In this document: piece by piece, positions 28,602-42,509 of the stretch
Position numbering within the stretch: the stretch's first letter is position 1
Layout: every line of letters starts with the position of its first letter
IMG/VR virus record: IMGVR_UViG_3300046820_001062
Coordinates: 59,731-123,730 of that record
Strand: one strand, 5' to 3'
Length of the DNA stretch: 64,000 nt
Source: a virus
Notes under the pieces: model-generated
Told to the model about the DNA's origin: nothing
Database searches by the model: none
The model's input: the letters and a program-made list of their open reading frames with translations, nothing else
Position numbers and translations under genes: made by a program

Positions 28602-28631
28602 TGTTTATATTTATTTGGTTATTAAAATTTG

Positions 28632-28704
28632 AGCCTTCTGTAGGAGTTGAACCCACAACCTGCTGAGTACAAATCAGCTGCTCTACCAATTGAGCTAAGA
28701 AGGC
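28632..28704 (-). tRNA. tRNA-Thr(TGT)
   Basis: GCCTTCT/AGAAGGC acceptor; GCTGA-TTTGTAC-TCAGC anticodon arm; GGTTCAACTCC. Confidence 0.95.
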
Positions 28705-28709
28705 TTTTG

Positions 28710-28783
28710 TGATCCCACTAGGATTTGAACCTAGAACCTACAGCTTAGAAGGCTGTTGCTCTATCCAATTGAGCTATGAGACC
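28710..28783 (-). tRNA. tRNA-Arg(TCT)
   Basis: GGTCTCA/TGGGATC acceptor; ACAGC-CTTCTAA-GCTGT anticodon arm; GGTTCAAATCC. Confidence 0.95.
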
Positions 28784-28805
28784 TCATTGTAATTGATTTG
28801 TTGTT

Positions 28806-29086
28806 TGGTGGGACTACTGAATACCCACAAGTCCAACACACGCCCCTTTTCACCCATAGCCCAAGCAGATGATCAGTCAGCTTGTTAATGACTAGCTGGA
28901 TTGACTACCAGCACCTGCTGCGGAGATCAGATAGTATATGTCTTCACAGGACCTCAGAGCTTATTGGTTACGCAACCTTTAAGATGAGTGGTTTTAACTC
29001 ACGTGCTTGACAGCGTCCCCCTCAAAACTTTTCAGTATTGGAAAAACCACATTAACCCCTCTCAAGAGTTTTTTCTGTCACAAACA
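28806..29086 (-). ncRNA. Candidate large structured RNA upstream of the tRNA pair
   Basis: No long ORF, GC-enriched, multiple stems; GGGGTTA (29059-29053) pairs with TAGTCCC-ACCA (28816-28806). Confidence 0.55.
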
Positions 29087-29143
29087 CAAATCAAATGTCA
29101 AAGAACAATGCAAGTTAGTTTAAACTTGCAAGGTTTAGTTTTT

Positions 29144-29365
29144 TTACTCTGAAGTCTCAGCTCCACCTGGTCCGTCAGTTGCCTCCGCATTGTCAGGGCT
29201 TGTCATGTTAGCTATCATAATGGTAGCTTGAATACGCTTAGCTTCCTCTTGTACAGCCTTAGACTGTAGTTCAGCAAGCTCAGCACGTAGAGCAGCAAGT
29301 TCAATCTGGCTTTTATACCATGAAATCACTTCCTCTCTTGTTGGTTCTTTGGTTTCTTCTGCCAT
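29144..29365 (-). CDS. Hypothetical coiled-coil protein
   Basis: 73 aa; first gene after the leftward promoter. Confidence 0.6.
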   Translation of the reverse strand: MAEETKEPTREEVISWYKSQIELAALRAELAELQSKAVQEEAKRIQATIMIANMTSPDNAEATDGPGGAETSE

Positions 29366-39261: not shown

Positions 39262-40548
39262 ATGATCTTATTACAATCAGCAATTAGCGGCACAAGCTAT
39301 CAAATTAAAACTCTCCCTAAACAATCTTTTGAGAAAGGTTTGACACGTCACATTGATGACATGAAAATTACATCTCCAATTGCAGAGTTTGCTAAATTTC
39401 CTTTAGGAACAATTTTCATCACTGATGGATATGATTTTCCAGAAGATGATCACCTACACATTCGTAAAGAGAATGTTGTTGCAATGTTCTATGACACTAC
39501 TGTTTTTCCTCTAGCTCACATAGAGAAGCCACGCCTGCAAGAAATGGCTGACTTTACTGTTAACTATATGATTGACAGTGACTTATATGGCATTGAGAAA
39601 GCAAAAGCAATGGCGGAACAATTTGCATCTTATGGTTATGAATATGACTGGGATGCTATGATTGCTCCAAAGCCAACTGTATCTGGTGAAATTCCATCTG
39701 GAACAAACCTTAAACGTACTATTGCAGCAAACTTTCCTGTACCATCTGTTGATGACTGTGGGTTCCATATTGATCCTGATATGTGGTTCTTACTTGTGAG
39801 AAACGTGTTACGCGGTGAAAATACTTTGCTTGTAGGGCCTACAGGTTCTGGTAAAACAGAAATTGTATCCCACCTTGCAATGGCAATGGAAAAACAAATG
39901 TACATTCAAGACATGGGTACTGTTCAAGATGCTCAATCAGCATTGCTTGGCGTTCACCGTTTGAACAAAGAAGGTCACTCAGCATTTGAGTTTGCACCTT
40001 TTGTGAATAACATTCAAGCTGGTGGTATCATGTTGTTGGATGAGTTAAACCGTTCACCTCTTGCTGCAAATAATATCTTGTTCCCTTGTTTGGACAAAAG
40101 ACGTTACTTGCCAGTAGACATTGCATGTGAAGATTGTGATCGTAGGATTCCTGTTAATGAGAACACTGTGTTCTTTGCAACTGCTAACCTTGGTTCTGAG
40201 TATTCAGGTACTCATTCAATTGACCGTGCATTGCTTGACCGTTTCTTTCCAATAGAACTTGGTTATCCATCAGAAAAAGATGAGGTGAATGTACTTAAGT
40301 TGCGTACAGGAATTGATGAGAAGTTTGCTACTGCAATTGTACGTGTATCTAATGAGATACGTAAACAATACAAAGAGCAAGAACTTTCTACTCCTGTATC
40401 AGTTCGTCATACTATTCAAGCTGCAAGCCTTATTGCAGATGGTTTTGATGTAGATAAAGCATTGCTTGCTACTATCATGCCTTTATTTGAAGATGGTATT
40501 GGTGTATCTGAACGTAGCAAAGTACTTTCTATTGTATCAGCATTTTAG
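39262..40548 (+). CDS. MoxR/CbbQ/NorQ-type AAA+ ATPase
   Basis: GPTGSGKT, LLDELNR, ATANLG..Y.GT...DRALLDRF, S.R. Confidence 0.9.
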   Translation: MILLQSAISGTSYQIKTLPKQSFEKGLTRHIDDMKITSPIAEFAKFPLGTIFITDGYDFPEDDHLHIRKENVVAMFYDTTVFPLAHIEKPRLQEMADFTVNYMIDSDLYGIEKAKAMAEQFASYGYEYDWDAMIAPKPTVSGEIPSGTNLKRTIAANFPVPSVDDCGFHIDPDMWFLLVRNVLRGENTLLVGPTGSGKTEIVSHLAMAMEKQMYIQDMGTVQDAQSALLGVHRLNKEGHSAFEFAPFVNNIQAGGIMLLDELNRSPLAANNILFPCLDKRRYLPVDIACEDCDRRIPVNENTVFFATANLGSEYSGTHSIDRALLDRFFPIELGYPSEKDEVNVLKLRTGIDEKFATAIVRVSNEIRKQYKEQELSTPVSVRHTIQAASLIADGFDVDKALLATIMPLFEDGIGVSERSKVLSIVSAF

Positions 40549-40578
40549 GGTGTTTAGGATCACCTGAATTGACATTGG

Positions 40579-40606
40579 AAGGAGAGTGTAATGCTCTCCT
40601 TTCTTT
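40579..40606 (+). terminator. Terminator-like hairpin between AAA and vWA genes
   Basis: AAGGAGAGT/GCTCTCCTT followed by TCTTT. Confidence 0.6.
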
Positions 40607-40631
40607 GTCATAATTATCTAAATAAAATTAC

Positions 40632-42509
40632 ATGAGCAAATTAGTAAAAGACTGGTTCAACCGCAGAGCTGAAGATGCGTACACATTCAATGATGAATCA
40701 AAACGTTTCTTCAACTGGGATAAAGATAGGAGTTCATACTCTTCATACTTTATCAGAAATGACAACTCACTGAAGGAAGCTTCTAAAATGATTGGCTCTA
40801 TGTTCAGAGTTATTGGTGTACCTAAAACATTTAGATATTCTAATGATATCCAATCATCTAAAAAAGGTTATGCAGACGCCAAAGTTCAAGTACCTTTAAG
40901 CATGCTTAGAGATGAAAATGGCAATTACCTTGACAGAGATGAGAAGCTATTAGATGCTTTTTATGGTGCTGCTATTCAAAATGCTGCTCTTGCAACAATG
41001 CAGACAACACAAGAATACAACAAAACCATGTTGATGCGTGACACTTCAAAAACTACAACTGTAAAAGATTTGATTACAAGTGTATTGAACATAGAACGCA
41101 TTGATAAAAAGCTTGCTGATCGTCTTCCTGGTTATCTGAAATTTGTTCAGAAGTACAAAGAACATAGGTTTGAAAACTATGAAGGTCCCGGCATAGAAGC
41201 TCCAAAGCAAAAACGCTTACTTGATCTTGTGGTAAAAATGTTACGCTATCCTGCTAACATTACAGAAGAAGACATGGAAGACTTTGCTGAGCCTTTGAAA
41301 GCAATGGAGCGTATTCTTAAGAAGCATGGTGGTATACCAAATGATTTTGATAGTTGTGCTAGCATGGCTACCAGTTTATCAAACATTGTATACAAGTATA
41401 CTGAAAAAGAAGAAGAACCTCCTGGAGGTGGTGGTGAAGGTGAAGATGGATCTGGTGAAGATGATGGTTCTGGTACGCCAAGTCCAAGTAAGCCAAAACC
41501 TGAAGTAGACAAGTCTACACTAGACAGTCTTGCCACATTAATGATGGCAGATTTGATTAATCCTGAAGAAGGTTCAGCTGGTGGTGAAGATTTTGAAGAT
41601 GATTTTGAAGACTTTGTTGATGACATGTCTGAAACTTCTCCAACAACACCAAAGAGTGAATTTAACTGGGAAGAAGAAGGTACAGCATCTGAAGGTAAAA
41701 TATTCTGGAAGAAAGCTGAAGTAAACACACGTTCTAAAGATAGATATAGAGATGCCATGACTAAAATTGACACAACAAAAGCTGCTGTGTTACAAAAGTT
41801 ATTTGCTCGTAAGAGTAAAAACTATGAGTTTAGCATGAAGTCTATGCGTTCAGGACGTTTGGATACAAATAAGATTGCAGAAGCTGTGCAACAAGTTCCT
41901 ACTATTTATGAAAGATTTGGTCAAGTAACTACTAGCAAAGTTTGTGTTGGTGTTCTTATAGATGAATCTGGATCAATGGGAGGTACTAAAATACAGAAAG
42001 CAAGAGAAGCTGCAATCTTTATCAATGAAGTATTCAAGAAAATGCCTGACGTAGAATTGTTTATCTATGGTCATACTGCTGATACAAATGGCAGGGATTC
42101 TGTAGACATGACTATCTATCGTGAAAAAGGACTCATTACTGATTCTTTTTCTCTTGGTACTGTTGAAGCACATGCAAACAACAGAGATGGTGATGCAATT
42201 CTTGCAACAGCAAGACGTATACGTAATCAGACAGAGAATCAAGGTTTACTTATTGTATTATCAGATGGTGCTCCAAGTGCTTCTGGATATGGTGGACGTG
42301 AAGCAATTGCAGATACACGTAAGAAAGTTACGCGTGCTCAATCTTTAGGTTTCCAAGTTATTCAGATTGCAATTGAAGAACATGTCCCTTCTAAAGAGAT
42401 GTTTGATTACTTTATACAGATGACAGATATCAAGAATCTTCCAAAAGATCTTGTTAACTACATGTCTAAGAAAGTAGACAAGCTAATCAAAGAAAAAATA
42501 AGTTTGTAA
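40632..42509 (+). CDS. von Willebrand factor A (CobT/NorD-like) protein
   Basis: SGRLD, LIDESGSM MIDAS, NRDG.AI, VLSDG.P. Confidence 0.88.
   Translation: MSKLVKDWFNRRAEDAYTFNDESKRFFNWDKDRSSYSSYFIRNDNSLKEASKMIGSMFRVIGVPKTFRYSNDIQSSKKGYADAKVQVPLSMLRDENGNYLDRDEKLLDAFYGAAIQNAALATMQTTQEYNKTMLMRDTSKTTTVKDLITSVLNIERIDKKLADRLPGYLKFVQKYKEHRFENYEGPGIEAPKQKRLLDLVVKMLRYPANITEEDMEDFAEPLKAMERILKKHGGIPNDFDSCASMATSLSNIVYKYTEKEEEPPGGGGEGEDGSGEDDGSGTPSPSKPKPEVDKSTLDSLATLMMADLINPEEGSAGGEDFEDDFEDFVDDMSETSPTTPKSEFNWEEEGTASEGKIFWKKAEVNTRSKDRYRDAMTKIDTTKAAVLQKLFARKSKNYEFSMKSMRSGRLDTNKIAEAVQQVPTIYERFGQVTTSKVCVGVLIDESGSMGGTKIQKAREAAIFINEVFKKMPDVELFIYGHTADTNGRDSVDMTIYREKGLITDSFSLGTVEAHANNRDGDAILATARRIRNQTENQGLLIVLSDGAPSASGYGGREAIADTRKKVTRAQSLGFQVIQIAIEEHVPSKEMFDYFIQMTDIKNLPKDLVNYMSKKVDKLIKEKISL

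Follow-up and report, generated by a model that had tools for sequence, protein, structure and literature searches.

A probable enlarged branch of the manA RNA family, encoded among the tRNA and tmRNA genes of freshwater phages

What is encoded in the stretch of about 320 nt, free of any credible ORF, that precedes a tRNA-Arg gene in an uncultivated phage? The window considered here, that is, the whole stretch of 64,000 nucleotides that was analysed, comes from a 123.7-kb IMG/VR phage record (IMGVR_UViG_3300046820_001062) of about 35% G+C, the genes of which include those for a terminase, a portal, a major head protein and CobS/CobT-like proteins. On the minus strand the order is a 73-aa ORF, a terminator-like hairpin, the ORF-free stretch, tRNA-Arg, tRNA-Thr, small ORFs and tRNA-Met. 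ARAGORN predicts four tRNAs and no tmRNA in the window, Rfam at its gathering thresholds recognises tRNAs only, and Pfam and PHROGs gave nothing informative for the small flanking ORFs. Elsewhere in the window (39262-42509, plus strand) two adjoining genes match AAA+ ATPase/porphyrin-biosynthesis and CobT-like PHROG families, and form a CobS/CobT-like pair of a kind frequent in aquatic phages.

An initial annotation of this DNA had proposed a structured non-coding stretch upstream of tRNA-Arg, read as a tRNA mimic or degenerate tmRNA. Such a stretch does exist, with limits that differ from those proposed and run from about 29094 to 28793. It is a real, conserved and folded RNA gene, kept by freshwater phages beside tRNA and tmRNA genes, and we estimate at roughly 0.75 the probability that the minus strand here encodes, over about 302 nt (29094 to 28793), a structured RNA that stands by itself and represents an uncatalogued, enlarged branch of the manA family. 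Supported among the earlier views are those of a separate, structured and non-coding RNA associated with tRNA genes, of the absence of any Rfam family above threshold and of the relevance of tmRNA to its context; the identity as a tmRNA or tRNA mimic is not. The RNA is composed of a closing helix, a manA-type 5' junction, hairpin P1, a GNRA-capped hairpin, a manA-type 3' hairpin and an extra central domain of about 170 nt. The features of the locus, in the order of the minus strand, are as follows.

29365-29144, minus: 73-aa ORF
29109..29130, minus: terminator-like hairpin after the 73-aa ORF (consensus scan)
29097-29108, minus: boxA-like stretch GUUCUUUGA(C/G)A, just 5' of the RNA
28793..29094, minus: whole RNA, about 302 nt, enlarged and manA-like (19-sequence alignment A3; RF01745, 30.9 bits, E 5.9e-6)
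29081..29094, minus: closing helix, 5' strand (UUGAUUUGUGUUUG), pairing with 28807-28793
29049..29078, minus: manA-type junction, helix ACA/UGU enclosing GAAAAA and P1
29070-29064 with 29060-29054, minus: hairpin P1, loop with GAGA at 29063-29060; 5 covarying pairs, 100% paired
29015..29047, minus: P2, bipartite hairpin with a GNRA tetraloop cap (GAAA, 29033-29030)
28838..29006, minus: central domain, about 170 nt, enclosed by long-range helix P3, with no canonical manA counterpart
29006-29002 with 28842-28838, minus: helix P3, changes on both sides in 4 of 5 pairs
28966..28977, minus: P4 hairpin, self-complementary loop core (GCGU here)
28923..28930, minus: strand CUGAUCUC, partner of two hairpin loops (double pseudoknot or kissing contact)
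28895..28912, minus: P6, central hairpin GCUGG-UAGUCAAU-CCAGC; 100% paired, 2 covarying pairs
28862..28884, minus: P8 hairpin, invariant loop CUGAUCA (28876-28870) with the 6-nt palindrome UGAUCA
28808..28828, minus: 3' hairpin GUGGG-UAUUCAGUAGU-CCCAC, manA positions about 146-168; 100% paired, 2 covarying pairs
28793..28807, minus: closing helix, 3' strand (CAAACA-A-CAAAUCAA), directly after the 3' hairpin and ending 9 nt before tRNA-Arg
28709..28783, minus: tRNA-Arg(UCU), immediately downstream of the RNA (ARAGORN and RF00005, 71.5 bits)
28631..28704, minus: tRNA-Thr(UGU) (ARAGORN and Rfam)

The fold was derived with RNAalifold from alignment A3, which contains 19 distinct sequences with a mean column identity of 75%, and was compared with 500 shuffles. 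It comprises 59 nested pairs in 11 helices; 97.7% of the alignment cells concerned are paired, against 85.0% in the shuffles and 34-47% when the partners are slid, and 30 of the 59 pairs have changed on both sides, values that none of the 500 shuffles reached. Minimum free energy folding of the single window sequence gives z = -1.41, a value that says nothing by itself. P1 reads AACUCUU-GAG-AGGGGUU in the manA-model alignment of the window, and the AC:GU pair of the junction helix is replaced by GC:GC in clade B. P2 has changed on both sides in 9 of its 11 pairs, its loop varying among family members between GAAA, GCAA and GUAA, and the loop of P8 is identical in all 19 sequences above a stem that covaries. 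As the closing helix was misaligned by MAFFT, it was tested sequence by sequence: in the clade of the window the duplex reaches z = -2.3 to -3.4, and full strand swaps are seen between sub-clades (GUGUUUG/CAAACA, AUUCUG/UAGAAU and UUUUCAU/AUGAAAA), the helix of clade B being short and A/U-rich.

Two hairpin loops are joined by one further strand. The eight nucleotides CUGAUCUC pair both with the GAGA of the P1 loop (29063-29060) and with the UCAG of the 3' hairpin loop (28820-28817), the latter covarying with 28930-28927. In this double pseudoknot 100% of the cells are paired, three pairs have changed on both sides and the score was reached by none of 500 shuffles; covariation cannot tell whether the pairing occurs within one molecule or between molecules. 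Additional covarying 3-bp stacks reflected mostly the two-clade phylogeny, and only the two 4-bp pseudoknot helices were retained.

To what extent is this RNA distributed? BLAST searches of GenBank phages with the RNA returned no match, and the 10-kb surroundings matched only through their tRNA genes. A search with the 3' hairpin recovered four near-identical loci. Among 80 terminase-related loci (63-99% identity) the RNA is confined to those with a terminase identity of 89% or more, and RF01745 run over 50 terminase relatives likewise gave matches only in these nearest ones; the gap between the 73-aa and 95-aa ORFs, read in more distant relatives, holds an extra small ORF or a short spacer and not the RNA. 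The invariant central motifs reach further: the P6 hairpin sequence, used as a search pattern, recovered distant homologues, and one 24-base pattern collected 27 viral and 21 metagenome contigs. Three other loci (L092, L097 and L100) proved to be chance matches to an 18-nt search pattern. The exact family pattern, and this pattern alone is covered by the search, had no match in 185,579 species genomes. The RNA occurs only in phage and metagenome DNA.

The carriers include a complete 173-kb phage that has no relative of the window's terminase and a complete 120.7-kb phage with a terminase 74% identical. Identity between phages is 82-92% for the RNA and 89-93% for its central domain, compared with 65-90% for the flanking genes. 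For locus L099, as an example, the RNA is 82% and the central domain 89% identical to the window, orf95, orf131 and an exonuclease gene are 65-67% identical (aligned over most of their length), and the terminase and the 73-aa ORF are 74% identical over part of their length only. The RNA thus equals or exceeds the neighbouring protein genes in conservation, and it is under purifying selection. In most loci tRNA genes lie 4-33 nt from it, and the clade B copies have an intrinsic terminator behind them; the RNA is packed as a unit within tRNA/tmRNA gene arrays. The GUUCUUUGA boxA-like stretch is conserved in clade A even when the upstream gene differs; in L099 and L164, where that gene is a tRNA and not the 73-aa ORF, this stretch, which resembles an antitermination element, is still present. 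Very large tRNA arrays, of 19-21 genes in about 2 kb, are found some 1.0-1.6 kb from the RNA in two carriers (L136:2302-4365 and L189:2038-4409).

The RNA has also been lost. In L010 and L012, with a terminase 94% identical to that of the window, the site holds only a mini-hairpin, GTGTTTGTGGG-loop-CCCACAAACAC (L010:6515-6550), in which the closing helix is fused to the 3' hairpin, and tRNA-Arg and tRNA-Thr are missing as well. The segment that these two lack is bounded in the window by a TTGTG direct repeat, so that its absence reads as a deletion, and such a loss in a close relative makes the RNA dispensable. ARAGORN further reports, without assigning an identity, a tRNA with a two-base 'ct' anticodon at L010:6890-6965, L099:4886-4961 and L164:4669-4744; these genes occupy the site of the window's tRNA-Met or immediately precede the RNA. 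Visual reading of the L010 copy gives CUCAUAA as its anticodon loop, and the gene may be a tRNA-Met-like one with an unusual loop.

The assignment to manA starts from a match below threshold. manA is catalogued as a riboswitch candidate. The motif corresponds to Rfam RF01745 (Weinberg et al. 2010, PMC2864571), and in a permissive Rfam scan of 1 kb this model aligned over its full length to 29097-28798 of the window with 30.9 bits (cut-off 55.2) and E 5.9e-6, the window having a 169-nt insertion where the model has about 22 nt. Relatives from several independent lineages score 25.4-34.7 bits, again at full length and in the same place; two clade B loci gave no match at E<=0.1. No member of the family reaches the gathering score of 55.2 bits, and we therefore call the RNA manA-like and not a member by Rfam criteria. 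The initial annotation had named a match to a described Rfam family as something that would speak against its own reading, and such a match is present in part, manA being sub-threshold.

The enlarged RNA and manA are both phage-borne and have the same terminal parts. Alignment with cmscan and covariation identify the 5' junction (UGAC, GAAUAAA), P1 and UAAGG within a helix of 2-3 bp, so that the series G-UGAC/UGGC-xGAAUAAA, P1, UAAG-G and GNRA-capped hairpin is common to the two; at the other end a 3' hairpin with a conserved loop of the type UAxxCAGxAxU, which is the best-matching portion of the manA model, is followed directly by the 3' strand of the closing helix, annotated 'pseudoknot?' in that model. 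They differ in the middle and in their location. Canonical manA RNAs measure about 190 nt and have a 6-bp stem with 2-3 short hairpins, of which only the GNRA hairpin is found in the RNA of about 300 nt described here; a short variable hairpin of manA is replaced by the conserved domain of about 170 nt, with helices and palindromic loops of its own, for which Rfam offers no family and only chance-level matches. Canonical manA precedes metabolic genes in marine cyanophages, as part of their 5' UTRs; the enlarged RNA belongs to the tRNA/tmRNA arrays of freshwater phages and, instead of preceding a protein-coding gene in a 5' UTR, is followed by tRNA genes in the window and flanked by a tmRNA and a terminator in relatives.

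It could be argued from these differences that the RNA is a new class without common descent with manA, the 5' junction and the 3' hairpin being convergent or modular motifs: every RF01745 score is under the cut-off, over half the molecule is without an equivalent in manA, the genomic context is unlike that of most manA RNAs, and our full-length model R1 is blind to canonical manA. Against this, the matches are reciprocal and fall at homologous places. R2, a 72-position model of the 5' domain of the RNA, has its top match in cyanophage P-SSM2 on the genuine manA RNA (181.6 bits) at the homologous place (17.6 bits, E 0.007; next best 7 bits), and in 132 kb it recovers each of the 17 canonical manA RNAs present (75-197 bits) without any further hit at E<=1, a test that is not fully independent, the loci having been selected by means of a 15-nt pattern overlapping the R2 consensus. 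The order of elements is also the same throughout, from closing helix, UGAC/UGGC, GAAUAAA, P1, UAAG and GNRA hairpin to 3' hairpin. Two of the 17 canonical RNAs (L201:344-627 and L213:3525-3834; 169 and 197 bits) have a tRNA gene 13 and 49 nt downstream, so the tRNA context is not exclusive to the enlarged branch. Separate origin is thus an unlikely account of the data.

The element could instead be an ordinary manA cis-regulatory RNA, a riboswitch candidate controlling downstream genes from a 5' UTR. This would agree with the RF01745 match and with P-SSM2, where a consensus promoter precedes the canonical manA, itself part of the purL/hsp20 5' UTR; however, the genes downstream of the RNA here are tRNAs, clade B has an intrinsic terminator after the RNA and a tmRNA 4-7 nt upstream of it, the score is far under the manA cut-off and the 170-nt extra domain does not belong to manA, and we regard such a role as very unlikely.

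The initial annotation had closed the molecule differently, with an acceptor-like stem and an encoded CCA end. The letters are as it gave them: on the minus strand GGGGTTA (29059-29053) can pair over seven bases with TAGTCCC (28816-28810), which is followed by ACCA (28809-28806) 22 nt before tRNA-Arg (start 28783), and its remark that the real tRNAs encode no CCA holds for the neighbouring tRNA-Arg and tRNA-Thr, as read from the sequence. The stem is nevertheless not a conserved feature. Over the 19 sequences 77.4% of its cells are paired, the shuffles giving 76.2%; no pair has changed on both sides, which 65 of 500 shuffles equal, an absence of covariation that the initial annotation had itself listed as counting against its proposal; where the window has ACCA, relatives read CCCAUCAA, CCCACUAG, CCCACCUU or CCCGCCAG. 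GGGGTT is in fact the 3' arm of P1, and TAGT-CCC the loop and 3' arm of the 3' hairpin. Among the inner stems that had been suggested, GCTGG/CCAGC and GGT/ACC coincide with conserved helices, and GTGAGT/ACTCAT, AGCAGGTG/CATCTGCT, AGTCA/TGACT and the alternative helix upstream are 51-83% paired, no better than shuffles.

Other evidence on a tmRNA or tRNA mimic comes from the models and from the neighbours. RF00023 gave no match at E<=10 locally or at E<=1 across the 123.7-kb genome; with ARAGORN on the window and RF00023 on this genome, no tmRNA is found in the phage itself, nor did ARAGORN, which looks for the tag peptide, call one with a tag reading frame in the window. The models of the tRNA clan and YrlA do not match over the element, the sole YrlA match (22.1 bits, cut-off 69) falling on the two tRNA genes outside the RNA. 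Genuine tmRNA genes were observed in terminase relatives (70-77% identity) at L063:5986-6414, L041:1867-2289 and L042:51-473, with unusually long predicted tags of 17-24 residues ending in ..DMAA or ..AVAA; the order in L063 is tmRNA (RF00023, 90.7 bits), tRNA-Thr and then the 95-aa ORF. Among the homologues of the RNA, an intact tmRNA lies 4-7 nt, at times about 50 nt, from an intact RNA in L098, L089, L152, L125, L139, L170, L148, L158 and L164, the distance of 4-7 nt being found in at least nine viral contigs, and several metagenome contigs have the same adjacency, with tRNA genes on the other side. These adjoining tmRNAs score 60-70 bits with RF00023 and have tags of 17-24 residues ending in AVAA, ALAA, YAA or MAA. 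Since the RNA and an intact tmRNA adjoin each other in other phages, they are separate genes and the RNA is not a decayed tmRNA.

A resemblance does remain. The closing helix abuts the 3' hairpin much as the acceptor stem abuts the T arm of a tRNA, and tmRNA likewise has a terminal closing helix next to a 3' hairpin and neighbours the RNA in many phages; the seven pairs followed by ACCA in the window could be taken in the same sense, and the real tmRNA genes in the same gene neighbourhood of terminase relatives as a hint of descent from tmRNA. The RNA nonetheless has no tRNA-like domain signature (neither a T-loop nor G3:U70) and lacks a tag frame, the tmRNA model does not match it, its proposed acceptor stem does not covary and its ACCA is not conserved, so that a tRNA mimic or degenerate tmRNA is scarcely credible. 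Equally little probability attaches to the RNA being only a processing or transcription signal of the tRNA operon (a spacer, a terminator or antiterminator, or an RNase site) without a role as an RNA product: it is tightly placed between genes trimmed by tRNA-processing nucleases and has a terminator-like hairpin and the boxA-like stretch just upstream, but a length of about 300 nt, eleven covarying helices, a double pseudoknot and loops that do not vary far exceed the needs of such signals, and the fold is kept although the place of the RNA among tmRNA and tRNAs changes (ahead of the tmRNA, behind it, or with tmRNA absent).

If the RNA is, as we favour, an enlarged manA-like RNA with a gene of its own, how might it be made? 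In four RNA libraries from freshwater or rivers, contigs were found over 28832-29320, a weak sign of expression since such contigs give neither strand, ends nor level and DNA carry-over is possible; some of them run in from the upstream ORF, and none extends over 28793-28831 or joins the RNA to tRNA-Arg. Metatranscriptome cover on the tRNA genes came from other organisms. The tight spacing to tRNA and tmRNA genes suggests that the RNA would be co-transcribed with these adjoining genes and cut free by the same nucleases as process the tRNA and tmRNA beside it. The tRNA cluster of phage T4 offers a parallel in species 1 and 2, stable RNAs other than tRNA, of about 120-140 nt, that are released by tRNA processing; like the enlarged RNA they are non-tRNA RNAs within a phage tRNA gene cluster, and they are shorter.

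The loops of the central domain point to a possible mechanism. According to lineage the core of the P4 loop is GCGU, UGCGCA, UGUACA or GGCC, self-complementary in all cases, and the palindrome is kept through paired (double) substitutions. Such a palindrome cannot be satisfied within one molecule, and the self-complementary loops of both P4 and P8 suggest self-association. manA RNAs are reported to build RNA-only cages and to assemble, by kissing loops together with a GNRA-receptor contact, into 8-, 10- and 60-mers (preprint 10.64898/2026.07.01.735769), and the genes for the ROOL and GOLLD cages lie close to tRNA islands of phages (Kretsch et al. 2025, PMC12286853). ROOL and GOLLD resemble the present RNA in being ornate phage or prophage RNAs, often beside tRNA islands, with no known protein partner and assembling into RNA-only cages (PMC12286853); they differ in being much larger (about 500-800 nt) and in having unrelated folds, and their Rfam models gave no match at E<=10 in the 1-kb scan.

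By analogy with manA, ROOL and GOLLD, contacts between copies of the enlarged RNA, made by its two self-complementary loops and its GNRA loop, could build an RNA-only oligomer or a cage of the kind reported for those RNAs. Self-assembly of this kind is the mechanism that we tentatively favour, at somewhat less than even odds; in the window the P4 loop is only the tetraloop GCGU, which is ill-suited to kissing, so that this contact would be weakened here. The gene neighbourhood, for its part, suggests a role tied to translation or to the phage tRNAs and tmRNA. That both hold together, the RNA self-assembling through its two loops and GNRA loop and the assembly acting with the phage tmRNA and tRNAs, for example by holding, protecting or delivering them, is a speculative and rather unlikely proposal; if true, it would explain why the gene travels with them between unrelated phages.

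We found no published description of the enlarged family, and because it is missing from Rfam 15 phage annotation pipelines leave an empty gap in its place. As a branch of manA it widens that family and argues against a purely cis-regulatory role, since it behaves as a gene of its own within phage tRNA/tmRNA arrays, the neighbourhood also of the cage-forming ROOL and GOLLD RNAs. With its compact size of about 300 nt it is a well-defined candidate for testing why phages keep self-assembling RNAs beside their translation genes.
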